A stretch of 64,000 nt of DNA from an uncultured Clostridia bacterium (GTDB lineage: Bacteria > Bacillota > Clostridia > TANB77 > CAG-508), in contig CANQTK010000003.1 in assembly GCA_947626735.1 (NCBI GenBank), positions 8,952 through 72,951 on the forward strand, written 5' to 3'. Both the position numbers and the translations under genes were made by a program. Below are positions 4,480 to 43,244 of the stretch, one piece after another; position 1 is the first letter of the stretch, and every line of letters begins with the position of its first letter. Below the pieces are notes generated by a model that saw only the letters and a program-made list of their open reading frames with translations, was not told the origin of the DNA and did no database searches.

Positions 4480-4497
4480 CGGTTTTATTAAATTAAA

Positions 4498-4682
4498 TTC
4501 CCCACCTTAGCCGTATATCGAAAAGAAATTTTTATACCTGTTTTCACAGGTGGGTGTCTTGTTGAAGGCTCCTGGGTTTCTTACTATTCAAAATGTAAGC
4601 TTACACGCCACCTTCAAAGGCGGACTCCCTTATTTTATTTGTTGGTAATAAAATTTCAGTCTACACGTACCACGCAGGGAAT
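4498..4682 (-). ncRNA. ssrS: 6S RNA (probable)
   Basis: About 185-nt GC-richer island whose ends pair (TTCCCTGCGTGG...CTAAGGTGGGGAA); CACCCACCTG...CAGGT element recalled from Firmicutes 6S RNAs; sigmaA-like promoter upstream, terminator downstream; no covariance model run. Confidence 0.72.
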
Positions 4683-4894
4683 AAAAATATTTATTTGTGA
4701 TTTTATTGTAGCATAACAGAATCTACTTTTTCAATCTTACTTTTGCTTAAATTTTATACTTTAGGCTATGTTTTTTCTTGTTATCTTACTTTTTCTCATT
4801 TACTACTACTTATTTCTCTTTTTTTAGTATTTGCACTTTTTCTTATTTTATGCTAAAATAAAGAAAATTGTGCTATTTCCTTTTGCACAATTTT

Positions 4895-30367: not shown

Positions 30368-30462
30368 AAAATGTCGCATTAGGGACGTTTTACAATGAGA
30401 CATTTTAAATATAATTAATAAAAAATGTCTCTTTAGGAAACGTCCCCAAAGAGACATTTTTT
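30368..30462. repeat. Hairpin repeat family 3, inverted doublet (copies 3 and 4)
   Basis: AAAATGTCGCATT-agggacgttttac-AATGAGACATTTT then AAAATGTCTCTTT-aggaaacgtcccc-AAAGAGACATTTT; contains the adk stop. Confidence 0.75.
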
Positions 30463-31104: not shown

Positions 31105-31299
31105 TTGTTGCTTACTCCCTTCTCTTTTGCTTTTACTTTACTATTATACCATTTTTTGCCACATAAGTATACTATTTTTTTATAAAAAAATAGATGCTTT
31201 ACTTTGCATCCATTTTTTATTATATATAATTTTTTCTCTGCTTAATATAATTAAGCCTTCAAATAATACCTGTTTTTTTCCTCCGTCCCCAAAAACAGT

Positions 31300-33588: not shown

Positions 33589-33615
33589 AGTCTTTTCCCT
33601 CCTTTTTCTTAAGGT

Positions 33616-33708
33616 AAGGGGACACATCTTTACTTTTACGTCACTTCCATAGGGACAAGATATGTCCCCACTATGAATAAGTAATGTCAGTAATTTAATG
33701 TTCTCCTT
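33616..33708 (-). repeat. REP-like family 1, copy B (rplR-rpsE)
   Basis: GGGGACACATCTT...AAGATATGTCCCC. Confidence 0.85.
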
Positions 33709-33731
33709 ATTCTTCATTTTTTCTTTTTTAT

Positions 33732-34091
33732 TTAAAATTCTAATCCTGCTTCTCTTGCAGCTTCTGCTAATTCTTTTACAACGCCATGATAAATATATCC
33801 ACCTCTATCATAAACAACAGATTTAATATTTTTTTCTATGGCTCTTTTTGCGATTAAAGTACCTACTTCTTTTGCTGCTTCTTTATTAGCATGTTTTGTT
33901 TTTACTTCTTTATCTAATGTAGAAGCTTGGCAAAGAGTTGTTCCTTTCACATCATCAATGACTTGAACAAAAAGATTTTTATTACTTCTATAAACACATA
34001 GTCTTGGACGTTCTGCAGTTCCACTAATTTTTGTACGAACCCTAATATGTCTTCTTGTTCTTTCTACTTTACGATTTACTTTCGTAATCAT
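33732..34091 (-). CDS. rplR: 50S ribosomal protein L18
   Basis: [28 protein letters not shown]. Confidence 0.99.
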
Positions 34092-34153
34092 TGTTTTCTC
34101 CTTTCTACTAATGTAACAGCATTAGTAATTTAGATTGTTTTATAAGTTATTAT

Positions 34154-34278
34154 GAAACAAAGCAAAAGTGGTATATTGCTAGGAAAGCAAATAAAAATTT
34201 TTGAGATAATACGAGTTTGTATATCGAAAAAATTTTTATGCAGCTTGACAACGCAAGATGCCGCTTTTCATTTGTTTC
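34154..34278. repeat. Long hairpin repeat family 2, copy 1 (rplF-rplR)
   Basis: TTGCTAGG...TTTTTGAG..TAC..GTA..CGAAAAAA...GACAACGCAAGA core enclosed by an outer inverted repeat. Confidence 0.8.
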
Positions 34279-34817
34279 TACTTCTTACCTGCTTTACCTT
34301 CTTTTCTTCTAATATGCTCATCTGCATATTTAATACCTTTACCATGATATACTTCTGGTGGTCTCTTTGTTCTTACTACTGCTGCTGTTTGACCAACTGC
34401 TTCTTTATCAATTCCTTTTACAATAACGGTATTTGGGTTTGGAACATCAAATGTAATACCTGCAGGTTCTTCCATCTCTACTGGATGAGAATAACCTAAA
34501 TTCATTACTAATTTTTTTCCTTGTTTTTGTGCTCTATATCCAACACCAACAATTTGTAATTCTTTTTGATATTCATTACGAACACCTTCTATCATGTTGG
34601 CAATTAAAGTTCTTGTTAATCCATGTAAACTTTTATTTTCTGCTTCATCGTCTGGTCTTGTAATATGAATTACATTTCCTTCAATGGCAACACTCATGTT
34701 TTTGTGGATTTCTCTTTCTAATGTTCCTTTAGGTCCTTTTACCGTTAAATGTGTTCCATCTAGTTTTACTTCTACTCCTTCTGGTACGGTAATAGGTTTA
34801 TTTCCTATTCTTGACAT
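34278..34817 (-). CDS. rplF: 50S ribosomal protein L6
   Basis: MSRIGNKPI, GVGYRA, PEVYHGKGI. Confidence 0.99.
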   Translation of the reverse strand: MSRIGNKPITVPEGVEVKLDGTHLTVKGPKGTLEREIHKNMSVAIEGNVIHITRPDDEAENKSLHGLTRTLIANMIEGVRNEYQKELQIVGVGYRAQKQGKKLVMNLGYSHPVEMEEPAGITFDVPNPNTVIVKGIDKEAVGQTAAVVRTKRPPEVYHGKGIKYADEHIRRKEGKAGKK

Positions 34818-34843
34818 GACTGGTTTTCCTCCTTTTCTTCTAA

Positions 34844-34943
34844 TGACAGGGGACACATCTTACCTCTTAGTCACTTTCACTTTGGGTTAAGGTATATCCC
34901 CTACCCTTGTGAATTAATGTTCAAATGTTTTACCAATTCCCCT
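34844..34943 (-). repeat. REP-like family 1, copy C (rpsH-rplF)
   Basis: TGACAGGGGACACATCTTACC...AAGGTATATCCCCTAC. Confidence 0.85.
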
Positions 34944-34955
34944 ATTGATTTTCTA

Positions 34956-35354
34956 CTACCACACATAGGCTAGTACTTCTCCACCTAAACCTTCATTTCT
35001 TGCTTCTTTATCCGTTTTAATTCCTTTTGAAGTAGAAATTAAGGCTATTCCTAGTCCATTTAATACTTGTGGTAATTCGTCCTTTGATGCATATACCCTT
35101 AATCCTGGTTTGCTAATTCTCTTTATTCCATCGATTACTTTAGCACCTTTTTCATCATATTTTAAGGTAATTCTAATCATTCCCTGTGCCTCATCTTTGA
35201 TTTCTTCAAATGCTTTGATATATCCTTCTTCAAATAGAATTTTAGCAATTGCTTTTTTCATATTAGAAGATGGAACATCAACAGTTTTATGTTTTGAACT
35301 ATTGGCATTTCTAATTCTTGTTAGCATATCTGCTATTGGGTCTGTTGTATTCAT
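34956..35354 (-). CDS. rpsH: 30S ribosomal protein S8
   Basis: [30 protein letters not shown]. Confidence 0.99.
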
Positions 35355-35395
35355 ATTCAATATTTCCCTCCTTTTTCCCTGTTTTATCATTTATT

Positions 35396-35581
35396 CTACC
35401 AACTTGCTTTTTTTACTCCAGGAATTTCACCTTTATGTGCTAATTCTCTAAAACATACACGGCAAATTCCATATTTTCTAATATAAGCATGTGGTCTTCC
35501 ACAAAGTTTGCATCGATTATATTCTCTTGTTTTGTATTTTTGTTCTCTTGCTTGCTTTACTTTTAAAGATTTCTTAGCCAT
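35396..35581 (-). CDS. rpsZ: 30S ribosomal protein S14, Zn-binding type
   Basis: [29 protein letters not shown]. Confidence 0.98.
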
Positions 35582-35606
35582 TAGCTATTTTCTCCTTTCA
35601 CTAGTT

Positions 35607-35704
35607 TGACAGGGGACAACTACTGCCTTTTGGTCACTCTCATTTGGGATAAGGTATTTTTCCTACCTTTATGAATGAATGTTCAAATGGTTTTTTATCC
35701 TCCT
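35607..35704 (-). repeat. REP-like family 1, copy D (rplE-rpsZ), degenerate stem
   Basis: TGACAGGGGAC...GGTCACTCTCATTTGGGATAAGGTA...TGAATGTTCAAA. Confidence 0.8.
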
Positions 35705-35715
35705 GCTATTTCATT

Positions 35716-36258
35716 TTAATTTTTAAATGGCATTCCTAATAATGTTAATAATTCTCTTGCTTCTTCGTCTGTCTTAGCGGTAGTAACAAATATAATATCC
35801 ATACCTCTAATTTTGTCTACTTTATCATATTCGATTTCAGGGAAGATTAATTGTTCTTTTACACCCATAGAGTAGTTTCCTCTACCATCAAAAGAATTTT
35901 TAGATACTCCTCTAAAATCTCTTACTCTTGGAAGTGCTACATTAAATAATTTATAAGCAAAATCATACATTTTTCCTTGTCTTAATGTAACTTTACATCC
36001 CATGTTAACGCCTTCTCTAATTTTGAAAGCAGCAATTGCTTTCTTTGCTTTTGTTATAATTGGTGTTTGACCAGTGATTATTTTAATATCATTGATAGCG
36101 TTTTCTAATGATTTTGGATTGTCTTTAATATCTCCTAATCCGACATTAATTACTATTTTTTCTAATTTTGGAACTTCCATTACTGATTTATAATTAAATT
36201 TTTTCATTAATGCTGGAATGACTTCTTTTTGATATTGTTCTTTTAATATTTCCATCAT
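35716..36258 (-). CDS. rplE: 50S ribosomal protein L5
   Basis: [29 protein letters not shown]. Confidence 0.99.
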
Positions 36259-36280
36259 TTATGTATTTCCTCCTTTCATT

Positions 36281-36378
36281 TGACAGGGGACACATCTTAC
36301 CTCTTGGTCACTTTCACTTGGGCTAAGGTATGTCCCCTCCCCTCGTGATTAAGTGTTCAAGTAGTTTTAATGTCCTTC
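36281..36378 (-). repeat. REP-like family 1, copy E (rplX-rplE)
   Basis: TGACAGGGGACACATCTTACC...AAGGTATGTCCCCTCC. Confidence 0.87.
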
Positions 36379-36687
36379 TTATTTTAGTTTGGTGTTGCAC
36401 TTTTTACAAACACGTACTTTTTCATCTTTTTCTATTTGATAACCAATTTTGGTAGCCTTTCCACATTTAGGGCAAACTACGTTTACTTTACTTGCGTGAA
36501 TAGCACATTCTACTGGTATAATACCGCCTTCTTCACCTTGTTTTCTTGGTTTTACATGTTTTTTTCTAACATTGATACCTTTTACTATAATCTTCTGCGT
36601 TTTTGGTATTACTTCTAGTACTTCTCCTGTTTTCCCTTTATCATTTCCAGATAAAACTTTGACATTATCGCCTTTTTTTATTTTCAT
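36379..36687 (-). CDS. rplX: 50S ribosomal protein L24
   Basis: KKGDNVKVLSGNDKGKTG. Confidence 0.99.
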   Translation of the reverse strand: MKIKKGDNVKVLSGNDKGKTGEVLEVIPKTQKIIVKGINVRKKHVKPRKQGEEGGIIPVECAIHASKVNVVCPKCGKATKIGYQIEKDEKVRVCKKCNTKLK

Positions 36688-36767
36688 TTTTCTTTTTCAC
36701 CTCTTTTTTAGAATTTTGACTTCTATGAAAGAATTTTTAATTTACAATTTGTATCTTTTCTTATCTT

Positions 36768-37136
36768 TTAAAGTACTTCTGGAGCTAAAGATAAAATTTT
36801 CATATAATCTTTATCTCTTAATTCTCTAGCAACAGGGCCAAAAATACGAGTTCCTCTTGGGTTTTTATCTTCTCTTATAATGACTGCTGCATTTTCGTCA
36901 AATCTTACATAGGATCCATCTGCTCTTCGAATTGGTTTCTTTGTTCTTACTACTACTGCTTTTACAACGTCACCTTTTTTAACAACTCCGCCAGGTGTTG
37001 CTGTTTTAACAGAAGCAACAATGACATCACCAACACCAGCATATTTACGATAAGATCCACCTAAACATCTGATGCACATAATCTCTTTTGCACCAGTGTT
37101 ATCCGCTACTTTTAATATGGATTGTTGTTGTACCAT
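36768..37136 (-). CDS. rplN: 50S ribosomal protein L14
   Basis: [28 protein letters not shown]. Confidence 0.99.
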
Positions 37137-37180
37137 TTTTCGCTTTTCCTCCTTTTACTAATGTTCTCCTATTTTTAATT

Positions 37181-37444
37181 TTATTTAATAATAGCCTTTT
37201 CTACTATTTTTACCACTCTAAATCTTTTATCTTTAGATAAAGGTCTTGTTTCCATGACTTGTACCTTATCGCCAATTCCACATTCATTGTTTTCATCATG
37301 TGCTTTTAAGGTATAAGTTTTCTTTTGAATTTTTCCGTAAGTTTTATGTTTTTCGTTCGTCTCTACGGCTACTACTACAGTTTTATCCATCTTATTTGAT
37401 TTTACAATGCCTGTAAATGTTTTACGAAGATTTCTTTCTTCCAT
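37181..37444 (-). CDS. rpsQ: 30S ribosomal protein S17
   Basis: [19 protein letters not shown]. Confidence 0.99.
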
Positions 37445-37470
37445 TCTTAAATCTCCTTTCTTTCCTTATT

Positions 37471-37569
37471 TGTCAGGGGACGCATCTTTCTTTTTGGTCA
37501 CTTCCACTTGGGCTAAGGTATGTCCCCTCCCCTTGTGATTAAGTGTTCCAATTGTTTTAATGTTCTCCT
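37471..37569 (-). repeat. REP-like family 1, copy F (rpmC-rpsQ)
   Basis: Nearly identical to copy E. Confidence 0.87.
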
Positions 37570-37770
37570 TTATTTATTGTCTTCTAATTTTCTTTCTGTT
37601 AATACAGTATTAATTTTTGCAATGTCTTTTTTCACTTCTTTAATTTTCATAGGATTATCTAATCCATTTGTTGCTAAACTAAATCTTAGTTTGAATAATT
37701 CCGATTTCAATTCTCCTAATTCTTTTTCTAGATCTGGTGAAGACATTTTTCTTATTTCATTAATCTTCAT
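37570..37770 (-). CDS. rpmC: 50S ribosomal protein L29
   Basis: [27 protein letters not shown]. Confidence 0.97.
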
Positions 37771-38200
37771 CACTCTCACCACCTATTTCAGTTTCTTTTT
37801 TAACAAATTTACACTTAACAGATAGTTTATTTCCAGCAAGTCTTAGTGCTTCTCTTGCTGCTTCTTCAGGTACTCCTGCTATTTCAAACATAACTCTTCC
37901 TGGTTTTACGGCTGCTACCCAATATTCTACTGCTCCTTTTCCTTTACCCATACGAGTTTCTGCTGGTTTCTTTGTTATTGGCTTATCTGGGAAGATTTTA
38001 ATCCAAACCTTTCCTCCTCTTTTAATATAACGAGTCATAGCAACACGGGCAGATTCAATTTGGTTTGTTGTAATTAAACCTGCTTCTAATGCTTGAAGTC
38101 CAAATTCACCATCTGATACATAATTTCCTCTTGTTGCTTTTCCTCTATTTCTACCTTTTTGTTGTTTTCTATATTTGGTTCTTTTTGGCATTAATGGCAT
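37760..38200 (-). CDS. rplP: 50S ribosomal protein L16
   Basis: [20 protein letters not shown]. Confidence 0.99.
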
Positions 38201-38859
38201 TATTTGTCTCCTCCTTCCACTTTCTTTTTCGTTGGAAGAACTTCTCCTTTATAAATCCAAACTTTGACACCGATTTTTCCATATGTGGTATCTGCTTCTG
38301 CAAATCCATAGTCAATATCAGCTCTTAAAGTTTGAAGTGGTATGGTTCCTTCTTTATAGAACTCAGTTCTTGCCATGTCTGCTCCACCTAATCTTCCAGA
38401 TACTGCAGTTTTAATTCCTAAAGCACCTGCTTTCATTGTTTTTTGCATACATTGTTTCATCGCTCTACGGAAGGAAATTCTTCTTTCTAGTTGTCCTGCG
38501 ATGTTTTCTGCAACTAATTGTGCATTTACATCTACATCTTTTACTTCAACGATATTTAAATTTACTTCTTTTCCTATCATTTTTTGTAATTCATTTTTTA
38601 ATGTTTCTGCTAAGTTTCCACCTTTACCAATGACTAATCCTGGTTTTGCTGTGTAAACATTCACTTTTACAAATTTAGCAGTTCTTTCAATTTCAATTCT
38701 TGAAATTCCGCTAATATATAATTTTTTCTTTACATACTCACGAATTTTGTGATCTTCTACTAGGTAGTTTGCAAATTCTTTTTTGTTTGCATACCATTTT
38801 GAGTCCCAGTCTTTAATTACACCAACTCTTAATCCATGAGGATCCATTTTTTGTCCCAT
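38200..38859 (-). CDS. rpsC: 30S ribosomal protein S3
   Basis: [27 protein letters not shown]. Confidence 0.99.
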
Positions 38860-38879
38860 TGTATATAAGCTCCTTTCTA

Positions 38880-39248
38880 TTAATCTCTTTCTCTTAATAC
38901 GATTGTAATATGGCTTGTTCTTTTACGAATTCTAACAGCAGAACCTTTTGCAGCTGGTCTAATTCTTTTTAAAGTTGGACCTTGGTTTGCATATACTTCT
39001 GCAACGTATAGTTTTTCATGTGCCATATGATGATTGTTTTCAGCGTTTGCAATAGCTGATTTTAATAATTTTTCTACTATTTCAGAGGCAGCCTTTGGTG
39101 TAAATTTTACGATAGCTAATGCTTCGTCTACACTTTTTCCTCTAATTAAATCGATGACGATTTTTACTTTTCTACTTGAAATTCTAGCATATTTAAGAGT
39201 TGCTGCGGCTTCTGGAATAATAACTTCTTGCATTTCTTCTTTTTCCAC
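38880..39248 (-). CDS. rplV: 50S ribosomal protein L22
   Basis: [27 protein letters not shown]; GTG start after AAGGAGG. Confidence 0.98.
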
Positions 39249-39266
39249 GTTATTTTCCTCCTTAAT

Positions 39267-39367
39267 TGTCAGGGGACACACCTTTTTTATTTTGTCACTT
39301 CCACTCGGGTTTAAGGAATGTCCCCTCCCCTTGTGAATTAGTGTTCAAATATTTTTGGTGTTCTCCT
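39267..39367 (-). repeat. REP-like family 1, copy G (rpsS-rplV)
   Basis: TGTCAGGGGACACACCTT...AAGGAATGTCCCCTCC. Confidence 0.85.
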
Positions 39368-39379
39368 TATTTTTATTTT

Positions 39380-39661
39380 TTATTGTTTTGTTGTGGTTGT
39401 TTTCTCTCCTGCATGACCTTTAAAAGTTCTTGTTGGAGCGAATTCTCCTAATTTATGACCTATCATTTCTTCTGTAATATAAACTGGCACATGTTTTCTA
39501 CCATCATGAACAGCGATTGTGTGTCCTACCATTTGAGGGTATATAGTAGAAGCTCTTGACCATGTTTTTAATACTTCTTTTGCTCCTGTTTCGTTCATTG
39601 CTTCAATTCTTTTTAATAGTTCTGGAGCAACAAATGGAGTCTTTTTACTTGATCTTGACAT
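39380..39661 (-). CDS. rpsS: 30S ribosomal protein S19
   Basis: [18 protein letters not shown]. Confidence 0.99.
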
Positions 39662-39677
39662 ATCTTATTTTCCCTCC

Positions 39678-40505
39678 TTATTTTCTTCTCTTAACAATCA
39701 TTTTGTTCGATTGTTTATTTTTCTTTCTCGTCTTGTATCCTAGAGCTGGTTTACCCCAAGGTGTCATTGGTCCTGCGTGTCCTACTGGAGCTCTACCTTC
39801 ACCACCACCATGAGGGTGATCTACTGGGTTCATAACAGAACCTCTAACGGTTGGACGAATTCCTAAATGTCTTGTTTTTCCAGCTTTACCAAGTTTTACG
39901 TTTTCATGGTCTGTATTTCCTACCGTTCCGATAGTTGCTCTACATCTTGTCATAACTAATCTCATTTCTCCAGATGGAAGTCTTATGTGAGCATAATTTC
40001 CTTCTTTCGCCATTAATTGTGCTTCTTGACCAGCTGCTCTTACCATTTTTCCACCTTGACCTGGATTTAACTCGATGTTATGAATCATAGTACCTACTGG
40101 AATTGCTTCGATTGGCATTGCATTTCCTGGTTTTATATCTGCTTTTTCTCCAGATACTACTTTGTCACCATCCGTTAATCCTACTGGTGCTAAGATGTAA
40201 CTTAAAGTTCCATCTTCATATTTAATTAAAGCGATGTTAGCACTTCTGTTTGGGTCATATTCGATACCTACTACAGTTGCTTCCATATCATCTTTGTTTC
40301 TTTTAAAATCAATTACTCTATATTTTTGTCTATTTCCTCCACCTTGGTGACGAACGGTTACTCTACCATAAGAGTTTCTTCCTGCTTTTTCTTTCTTTAC
40401 TGTTAATAAAGATTTTTCAGGAGTTTTTTTGGTAATTTCGTCAAATGTAGAAACTGTTGTGTTTCTTAATGATGGGGTTGTTGGTCTAAAGTGTTTCATT
40501 CCCAT
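39678..40505 (-). CDS. rplB: 50S ribosomal protein L2
   Basis: [21 protein letters not shown]. Confidence 0.99.
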
Positions 40506-40515
40506 TATTCTTTTC

Positions 40516-40635
40516 GAAACTTTGAAAAACTTCGTCTTGCGTTGTCAGATTTCAAAATTATTTTTTCGACATACAGATGTATAGTCTCAAAAATATTTTC
40601 TCATCTTCCTAGCAATACTCGTTTTTGAAAGTTTC
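40516..40635. repeat. Long hairpin repeat family 2, copy 2 (opposite orientation), directly upstream of rplB
   Basis: Homologous to copy 1; outer 15-bp stem with one mismatch. Confidence 0.8.
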
Positions 40636-40730
40636 TCTCCTTTCTTACTTTTATTTTTATTGTAGTTTTTTTCCCGGTCCACTTCCGGCTATTCTTTCTT
40701 TTCCGAGTGATTTCTCGATAAAATTTTTAT

Positions 40731-40901
40731 TTATCTTTCTTCTCTTGTAAAAATTTTTTCTCCATTTTCAAATCTTTCTAGTGCTTTGTCAAATATTTCT
40801 TCTTGATTTTCTGGTGGTAAACAATATTTTGCTATAAATCCATCTTCTGGAATTCTATTTCTTTCTAAAAATTCTTTTCTTTTTTCACTTGTTTCACTCA
40901 T
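40731..40901 (-). CDS. Small hypothetical protein, 56 aa, inside the S10 operon
   Basis: Manual translation MSETSEKRKEFLERNRIPEDGFIAKYCLPPENQEEIFDKALERFENGEKIFTREER; SD AGGTGA. Confidence 0.6.
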   Translation of the reverse strand: MSETSEKRKEFLERNRIPEDGFIAKYCLPPENQEEIFDKALERFENGEKIFTREER

Positions 40902-40928
40902 ATTTTTCACCTACTTCTATTTTTAGAT

Positions 40929-41050
40929 AAACGAATCAAAATTAGTAGATTGCTAGGCAAATTTAATAATTAACACCTGAGGCGTACGTGTGTACGTTGA
41001 AGGTTTAATTATTAAATTTAACGACGCAAGATGCTGATTTTCATTCGTTT
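40929..41050. repeat. Long hairpin repeat family 2, copy 3
   Basis: TTGCTAGGC-AAATTTAATAATTAA..TGAGGCGTAC-GTGT-GTACGTTGAAG..TTAATTATTAAATTT-AACGACGCAAGA. Confidence 0.75.
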
Positions 41051-41053
41051 AGG

Positions 41054-41401
41054 TTATGCTCCCATGAATTCATCAATTGAATCTTTATATTTCTTTGTCA
41101 TTTTTGTAGCTTTTCCGCCTTTAGCAAGATATGTTTTTTCAGCTGGATTGGTATCGATGGTTACAATTGCTTTTTTCCAATCTGATGTTTTTCCTTCATA
41201 TCTTCCCATTCTTTTCATTTTTCCTTTTACCGTAACCGTATTTACTTTTAATACTTTTACTTCAAATAATTTTTCTACTGCATTTGCAATATCAACTTTT
41301 GTTGCTTTTTTGTTTACTTCAAAAGTGTATTTTCCTTCTTGCATTCCATCATTACTTTTTTCTGTGATAACAGGTGCAATGATAATATCTTCTGGTTTCA
41401 T
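41054..41401 (-). CDS. rplW: 50S ribosomal protein L23 with a C-terminal extension
   Basis: [21 protein letters not shown]. Confidence 0.98.
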
Positions 41402-43121: not shown

Positions 43122-43143
43122 TTGTTTTTCCTCCTTTACTTAA

Positions 43144-43244
43144 TGACAGGGGATGCATCTTTCCTTAACGTCATTTCCACTAGGGATAAGATACATCCCC
43201 TACTTGTGAATAAATGATGTCAGTTTTTATTGCAATCGCCTTCC
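43144..43244 (-). repeat. REP-like family 1, copy H (rpsJ leader)
   Basis: TGACAGGGGATGCATCTT...AAGATACATCCCCTAC. Confidence 0.83.

Follow-up and report, generated by a model that had tools for sequence, protein, structure and literature searches.

The S10/spc ribosomal-protein operon of an uncultured Clostridia bacterium contains three long hairpins between its genes, and the locus raises the question of what these hairpins are and how they came to lie there. The operon is carried on a 64,000-nt stretch of contig CANQTK010000003.1 (the window), with its genes on the minus strand; Pfam supports the identification of L6, L18, L23 and L2. The hairpins belong to a widespread, uncatalogued family of palindromic repeats that is folded strand-specifically. 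We put at about 0.5 the probability that they, together with a fourth copy beside a 16S rRNA gene elsewhere in the genome, are old copies, by now probably inactive, of a mobile element that is non-autonomous and comes from a family that spans phyla and for which no mover was found.

An initial annotation of the sequence had described three related hairpins of ~120 nt in both orientations. Within the window there are exactly three occurrences of TTGCTAGG and four of ACGCAAGA (three at the copies and one elsewhere), and three pairs of these motifs, spaced 81-83 nt apart, were found at exactly the places that had been given for the copies: c1 (34154-34278, plus strand), c2 (40516-40635, minus strand) and c3 (40929-41050, plus strand). 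Copy c1 fills the spacer between rplF (L6; 34278-34856, minus strand; PF00347, 8e-41) and rplR (L18; 33732-34091, minus strand; Pfam) and is antisense to the operon. It gave a covariance-model match of 132.3 bits at 34151-34281. Its 3′ end touches the rplF stop codon, and its 3′ arm (..GTTTC) continues into the complement of that codon (CTA). Copy c3 (128.4 bits) is also antisense, starts 2 nt past the stop codon of rplW (L23; 41054-41401, minus strand; PF00276, 1.5e-32), and has TTAG at each flank. Copy c2 (119.7 bits) is sense; it ends 10 nt ahead of the start of rplB (L2; 39678-40505, minus strand; PF03947 and PF00181), and an AAAGGAG Shine-Dalgarno sequence lies immediately 5′ of the hairpin.

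Each copy folds as one long hairpin, with free energies of -45.6 (c1), -34.6 (c2) and -52.4 (c3) kcal/mol. The corresponding z-scores were -8.3, -5.0 and -9.0, and none of 200 shuffled sequences was equally stable. The hairpin begins at its base with an outer stem of 8-10 bp that differs among copies. This stem is followed by a CAAAA/TTTTC box with a C-C mismatch and by a short variable stem. The next module is a 4-bp UUGC/GCAA helix that closes an asymmetric loop made of a 5′ UAGG strand and a 3′ RACRAC strand; a tandem G-A pair forms part of this loop in c1 and c2. The 5′ half of this basal motif (UUGC helix and UAGG loop) lies at 34176-34183 in c1, with its 3′ partner ACGCAAGA at 34251-34258; the corresponding positions are 40608-40615 and 40535-40542 in c2 (minus strand), and 40950-40957 and 41024-41031 in c3 (plus strand). 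A hypervariable stem of 12-17 bp stands above the asymmetric loop and leads to a second tandem G-A pair. The centre that had been noted earlier as "TGAG..CGAA" is this tandem G-A/G-A 2x2 loop, beneath an apical stem of 4-7 bp that contains a G-U wobble (GGCGUAC/GUACGUU in c3). The complete apical module of c3 (40969-41003, plus strand) reads ACCU-GA-GGCGUAC-GUGU-GUACGUU-GA-AGGU, with both the tandem G-A pair and the conserved G-U wobble.

Comparison among copies gives strong support to the structure, including its covarying stems and its conserved bulges. In a three-way alignment of c1, c2 and c3, 16 of 46 pairs retained pairing despite changes on both sides. When 31 copies from related genomes were compared, 89.8% of cells were paired (67% in shuffles) and 39 of the 46 pairs showed compensatory changes, a count reached by none of 500 shuffles. 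The signal was lost once partner columns were slid. The same number of covarying pairs (39/46) was obtained with a 19-sequence cross-phylum set. Covariation in the basal loop stayed within the set of non-canonical pairs (GA/GA vs GC/AA), and in the order-level set the apical pair was G-U or A-U and seldom G-C. The outermost arms were the least conserved part of the element. The shared motifs, the arms that differ yet remain complementary, the conserved bulges and the covariation of the stems had thus all been described correctly.

The fold is a property of one strand. In c1, c2 and c3 the TTGCTAGG...ACGCAAGA strand was more stable than its complement by 6-13 kcal/mol, and the model strand was the more stable one in 54/57, 19/19 and 39/42 copies of the sets compared (112 of 118 in all). 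When strands were compared over these copies, G-U pairs numbered 122 vs 68 A-C, and G-A pairs 136 vs 11 C-U. The family is evidently defined by the fold of one strand and not by terminal repeats.

A covariance model built from the three window copies (R1) was used to search the source genome (G000) and a sample of 41 relatives (likewise coded by G numbers here). R1 revealed the fourth copy in the source genome (C54:77-203), which is sense and runs directly into the 5′ end of a 16S rRNA gene. All four copies in this genome lie within ribosomal-protein or rRNA operons. Among the relatives, 15 of 41 genomes, from four of nine genera, had 1-10 copies each. Many of these were in translation-related operons (S12-S7, S7-fusA, L10-L7/L12, L14-L24, L29-S17, L5-S14, fusA-tuf and secY-adk), and others came after grpE, relA, pheS, mutS, pgk, alaS and dnaJ.

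Comparison of the same sites among relatives revealed filled, empty and decayed states. G000 (c1) and G012 have a copy in the L6-L18 spacer; in G005 and G014 this spacer is short and contains no copy, and in G003 just 9 nt survive beside the stop codon. The S12-S7 site is filled in G012, and in G000 the 3′ arm alone remains. The inner ~105 nt of c1 and of the G012 S12-S7 copy are almost identical, and their outer-arm bases differ at 5 of 20 positions. The grpE-dnaK site has full copies in G005, G010 and G012, two different internal deletions in G000 and G003, and is empty in G014 and G015, where a single TTAA contains the stop codon. The inner part of the G000 grpE-dnaK copy is precisely gone, leaving the residue AAAATTTATCAAAA|TTTTCATAAATTT. 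The rplW-rplB spacer ranges from full copies through a 3′ half to a 9-nt remnant, and short hairpins occur there too; those of G006 and G009 are cut precisely at the UUGC/GCAA helix, and species differ at this spacer in how outer and inner modules are combined. We considered whether short CAAAATTTTC-centred palindromes could be a pre-existing target family. Just one such site was found, and these palindromes are better read as deletion products. The element had been proposed to be mobile or regulatory; the states at shared sites, the patchy distribution and the high copy number in other genomes support its mobile behaviour.

The apex was then used as a query across phyla, as an exact GGAGGCGTAC, 4-7 nt, GTACGTYGAG, with one genome per species. 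At least 120 stretches matched, compared with ~9 estimated by chance under uniform base composition. The matches listed came from Acidobacteriota/Bryobacterales, Nitrospirota, Planctomycetota, Desulfobacterota, Rokubacteria/Methylomirabilota, Spirochaetota, Negativicutes, Peptococcaceae, gut Clostridia and others. Their flanks had the same architecture, with the NAGG/AACGNN loop and the CAAAA/UUUUC box including its C-C mismatch, and many of these loci aligned with R1 at full length. The apical module was almost invariant among phyla (GGAGGCGUAC..GUACGUYGAGG). A cross-phylum covariance model (R2) matched 56 of 401 genomes phylum-wide (about 1 in 7), in 47 of 278 genera. Among named complete genomes, Ca. 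Nitrospira defluvii had at least 84 copies, Treponema vincentii OMZ 806 at least 50 and Sporomusa ovata 17. The T. vincentii copies include near-identical subfamilies, and several "half" copies are interrupted by another repeat. The family thus goes beyond the local scale to many phyla, a larger finding than could be seen from the window alone. Carriage by phages was rejected, there being just five exact apex matches among 2.9 million viral contigs.

No catalogued family accounts for the element. The initial annotation had noted that a described Rfam family would remove its novelty; Rfam 15, searched over the whole window at the gathering score, left the element unmatched. The sole matches were a 6S RNA (4495-4683, minus strand, 103 bits) and one tRNA (63818-63889, minus strand). 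At E up to 10 over 33900-41300, only chance miRNA-like matches far under threshold were obtained. There was likewise no match on 20 cross-phylum loci, and none at E up to 10 on an N. defluvii copy. The motif strings of the element were not found in the searchable literature, and a census of MITEs (miniature inverted-repeat transposable elements) names nothing like it. The TD-2 RNA motif (Rfam RF03162, Treponema) is also a repeated structured element and occupies the same T. vincentii spacers, often directly beside element copies. However, TD-2 matches lie on the other strand beside the element; they clip only the edge of one weak copy and overlap no well-scoring copy. TD-2 units adjoin element copies on the opposite strand at T. 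vincentii OMZ 806 L279, L283 and L318. In at least one T. vincentii copy, a TD-2 unit is seemingly inserted inside the element, with the 3′ half split off.

The position of the element relative to genes is far from neutral. Of 58 Clostridia copies, 32 have their 3′ end no more than 10 nt from the stop codon of a gene to which they are antisense, and so do 14 of the 42 copies of T. vincentii. The reverse arrangement, a 5′ end at the stop codon of a sense gene, was found for only four and one copies, respectively (46 vs 5 summed). Such a strict rule of orientation is not expected for a neutral palindrome. Two T. vincentii genes use a stop codon that falls within an arm of the element. Sense copies lie 6-80 nt ahead of a start codon, and those ahead of rplB, rpsQ, rpsN, tuf and 16S rRNA are 6-30 nt away. 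The majority of copies run antisense to the only transcription that is evident. A promoter of its own was rejected for the element, as a sigma-70-like site was present upstream of only 5 of 56 copies. The surroundings of c1 had no promoter-like or terminator-like site, and counts around c2 and c3 equalled those of shuffles. Because no sigma-70-like promoter precedes the 5′ end, the antisense copies are, judged from these scans, improbable as RNA genes in their own right. An orientation linked to replication was also rejected for T. vincentii; the chromosome showed only a weak strand trend.

Taken as a non-autonomous mobile element, the family may be described as follows. Its fold is a hairpin of ~125-175 nt in which three conserved modules are joined by stems that are free to vary if they remain paired. 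The first module is a basal YCAAAA/UUUUCR box with the C-C mismatch. The second is an asymmetric NAGG/AACNNN loop that stands on a helix of 4 bp, and the third is the apical stem, CC-GGAGGCGUAC..GUACGUYGAGG, which contains a tandem G-A pair and a G-U wobble. A candidate trans-acting enzyme may recognise the folded single strand, as DNA or RNA, and the same enzyme would set copies at gene boundaries, so that mobility would be provided in trans. The usual placement puts the 3′ end of the element on the complement of a stop codon, and the folded strand is therefore antisense to the upstream gene. Any effect of the hairpins after rplF and rplW and before rplB on the S10/spc mRNA would probably be a by-product and not the reason for the element. 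The element behaves most like a hairpin-forming MITE or a REPIN, that is, a doublet of repetitive extragenic palindromic (REP) sequences, yet it fails the defining tests of both.

Several observations weigh against mobility as the explanation. Inner stems are unrelated among copies of one small genome. The L10-L12 and GGGtGRT gene-pair sites carry copies in separate families of the order, and the L10-L12 copies have in common an odd CAGAA/TTATC variant. Long retention under selection therefore fits at least as well as selfish spread. Same-site copies of different species still show compensatory changes at 14-19 pairs, which could reflect function or template-switch correction within the palindrome; selection on the fold and template-switch homogenisation fit the unrelated inner stems and the shared site occupation equally well. 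No gene recurs beside the element across phyla, and common families (ABC ATPases, short-chain dehydrogenases/reductases, response regulators) were found by chance only. No target-site duplication was consistent among copies. No mover was found. T. vincentii has no match to PF01797 (Y1_Tnp), the Y1 HUH family, despite at least 50 copies. The genes of G000 that resemble REP-associated tyrosine transposases (RAYTs; on C43, C19 and C11) are flanked by a different repeat, the GGGAC-type hairpins. DDE_Tnp_1 (PF01609) is absent from G036, G012, G010, G018 and G019, which have 6-10 copies each, and in T. vincentii, N. defluvii and S. ovata no model match, even at E up to 10, lay within 1.5 kb of a DDE_Tnp_1 gene.

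An associated transposase, which the initial annotation had suggested looking for, was thus not linked to the element; neither RAYT/IS200 nor IS5-type enzymes were supported. Genes between inverted pairs of the element were ordinary. Scans of the source genome for half-sites and motifs, made in search of a parent insertion sequence (IS), returned the known copies only. A "332-aa repeated ORF" (open reading frame) in T. vincentii proved to be an artefact of the 1-kb flank limit.

We regard as possible but doubtful that the hairpin is instead a working structured RNA or cis-acting RNA element, selected at gene boundaries of highly expressed operons, with mobility secondary or long past. It could be a site where a protein binds the two tandem G-A (kink-turn-like) loops, or else a signal for processing, stability or translation. 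A selected role of the fold as single-stranded DNA shares this estimate. The conservation of loops and wobble pairs across phyla while the stems covary freely, the GA/GA vs GC/AA exchange in the basal loop, and the shared sites in different families with the common L10-L12 variant are all consistent with such a role, as are the sense copies 6-30 nt ahead of rplB, rpsQ, rpsN, tuf and 16S rRNA and the confinement of all four source-genome copies to ribosomal-protein and rRNA operons. However, most copies are antisense to the evident transcription, and only 5 of 56 have a sigma-70-like promoter ahead of them. The element is missing at the same sites from close relatives, with no visible compensation, and copy numbers of 50-84, with tandem and truncated copies among them, are what repeats typically show and RNA genes do not. 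Rather unlikely, in our estimate, is a broader claim: that the family represents a new class of structure-defined nucleic-acid element in many phyla, whose three invariant modules, two tandem G-A motifs and a fixed G-U wobble among their features, bind a widely conserved host factor or an undescribed mobilising enzyme, and whose near-universal placement, folded strand antisense and 3′ end at a stop codon, reflects a mechanism tied to gene ends. Such a mechanism might be a target choice coupled to termination of transcription or translation, or an exapted polar signal at cistron boundaries.

Known types of mover were weighed in the same way, and each appears improbable. An IS5-family-derived MITE, moved by DDE_Tnp_1 with a 4-bp YTAR target duplication, would account for the hits on stop codons (TAA, TAG). 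It agrees with TTAG on both sides of c3 and possibly with TTAA/TTAG at the grpE copy, whose empty site has one TTAA that includes the stop codon. Such a duplication is absent at c1, at c2 and at the rplB-site copies, which have no YTAR word at all, and in many copies CTAA on the left and TTAG on the right are inverted repeats within the stem, not direct repeats. The least conserved part of the element is its outermost arms, the opposite of what is seen in transposase-bound terminal repeats. DDE_Tnp_1 is present in 9 of 26 element-free genomes in addition to being missing from the five copy-rich relatives, and its genes in three copy-rich genomes have no copy nearby; this mover was rejected for lack of co-occurrence and of matching ends. 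We consider it very improbable that the element is SINE-like (short interspersed nuclear element), i.e., an RNA copied by a host reverse transcriptase (RT) through target priming. Such a process would anchor the 3′ end and produce 5′ truncation. Decayed copies do retain the 3′ arm or 3′ half, it is the 3′ end that is fixed at gene boundaries, and homologous free-standing ~330-aa group-II-intron-like RTs occur in G000, G010, G019, G036 and T. vincentii. No RVT_1 match was found in G012 (nine copies) or G018 (seven copies), however, and the element has no 3′ tail, A-rich or other. Survival of the 3′ arm may merely reflect deletions that cannot enter the adjoining gene, and several of the T. vincentii "half" copies are interrupted by another repeat. 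Least credible is a doublet of the REPIN type whose folded single strand would be the substrate of a mover, either a RAYT (TnpA-REP) or an IS200-type Y1 HUH enzyme. A strand-specific hairpin with conserved mismatches, placed just after genes and numerous in some genomes, is what such a system would produce, and a ~260-aa Y1-like gene is present in all but one of the element-bearing genomes among the 41 relatives. The exception, G009, carries the element without Y1_Tnp, as does T. vincentii, so that co-occurrence is not clean, and this mover too was rejected. Moreover, the RAYT-like genes of the source genome are bracketed by GGGAC-type hairpins and not by the long hairpin, and REP families are lineage-specific whereas the core of this element is conserved across phyla.

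The non-autonomous mobile element that we favour can be set against known palindromic repeats. REP/REPIN-RAYT systems resemble it in being palindromic repeats outside genes and just after them, recognised as a folded single strand, non-autonomous, present in few to hundreds of copies and long persistent. They differ in that our element is one asymmetric hairpin of 125-175 nt and not a doublet of 20-40-nt REPs with a GTAG/CGTC tag. Its arms are not copies of one unit and its loops are asymmetric (UAGG vs RACRAC). Its core is also cross-phylum, and it is present without the Y1 enzyme in T. vincentii. ERIC/IRU, Correia/NEMIS, RUP and bcr1 are MITEs of ~100-170 bp, imperfect palindromes that fold as long RNA hairpins. 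They lie in transcribed operon spacers in either orientation and show strain-level insertion polymorphism; they have conserved terminal inverted repeats and regular target duplications and range within a genus or family. Compared with these hairpin MITEs as they are generally described, the present element differs in that its termini are the most variable part, its internal loops are conserved, it has no regular duplication and it crosses phyla. The integron attC site is similar in that the structure of one strand outweighs sequence, with conserved unpaired bases and a variable central stem, and in that it starts at the stop codon of the preceding gene with the folding strand antisense to that gene. 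Unlike in attC, the loop sequences of our element are strongly conserved, and its neighbours are syntenic core genes (rplF/rplR, rplW/rplB) and not cassettes. The attC cores R″/R′ (RYYYAAC/GTTRRRY) were not found by eye at the ends of c1-c3; no search aimed at an integrase was made.

Small palindromic repeats are usually seen as lineage-specific clutter. From gut Clostridia to Nitrospira, spirochaetes, Acidobacteriota and Planctomycetota, this element retains its asymmetric loops, its G-U wobble and its tandem G-A pairs, and it sits in the most highly expressed operons (S10/spc, str, rplJL, rRNA). A factor that reads the fold would reveal either a new route of DNA movement or a new gene-boundary signal. 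A covariance model of the family would also clear many unexplained "long spacers" and false calls of small RNAs and ORFs from annotation.

The region around rplB has further features. Between c3 and c2, ahead of rplB, a genus-conserved leader (40640-40725, minus strand) contains the hairpin CGAGAAAUCACUCG. A second hairpin of this leader has a loop that pairs with a downstream stretch. Because this pairing covaries between species (GUAGA/UCUAC, GCGG/CCGU, GUGG/CUAC), the second hairpin looks like an H-type pseudoknot, as far as comparison of sequences can tell. The leader occurs also in genomes that lack the long hairpin and has no Rfam match. Also between c3 and c2 is a 56-aa ORF with a Shine-Dalgarno sequence (40731-40901, minus strand); it has no Pfam match and was found only in G000 and G012 among the sampled genomes. 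Other genomes have either hairpin without this ORF, and c2 and c3 are therefore separate old copies rather than the two ends of a single cassette. The Shine-Dalgarno sequence at the rplB site (40637-40643, 40506-40515) lies 5′ of the hairpin in G000, G003 and G013 and 3′ of it in G005, G010 and G012. The two positions look like a duplicated AAAGGAGA of which one copy has decayed. In G000, hairpin c2 would apparently have to fold to bring the Shine-Dalgarno sequence close to the rplB start codon.

Other repeats and genes were observed beside the family. The free-standing group-II-intron-like RTs are ~330-367 aa long (C50:635-1732 in G000, and L346-L350) and are shared by G000, several relatives and T. 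vincentii at 30-66% identity, and they score under the curated cut-offs of models for group II intron maturases, retrons and defense-associated reverse transcriptases. A short hairpin, CTGTTTTTTTCCTCCGTCCCCAAAAACAG, follows the secY stop codon (31262-31293). The same hairpin brackets, in inverted orientation, a ~255-aa Y1 (RAYT-like) gene on C43, and related GGGAC-type hairpins surround two further RAYT-like genes. These hairpins and Y1 genes look like a true REP-RAYT system apart from the long-hairpin family. Additional repeats crowd the operon (33594-39374; 43125-43229; 30368-30460). One is an element of ~95-110 nt, GACAGGGGACAC...GGTCAC, with at least six copies, and another is a pair of AAAATGTC..GGGACG..GAGACATTTT palindromes. 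The latter type also fills the pheS-pheT spacer of the source genome, at the site where G010 has the long-hairpin element.

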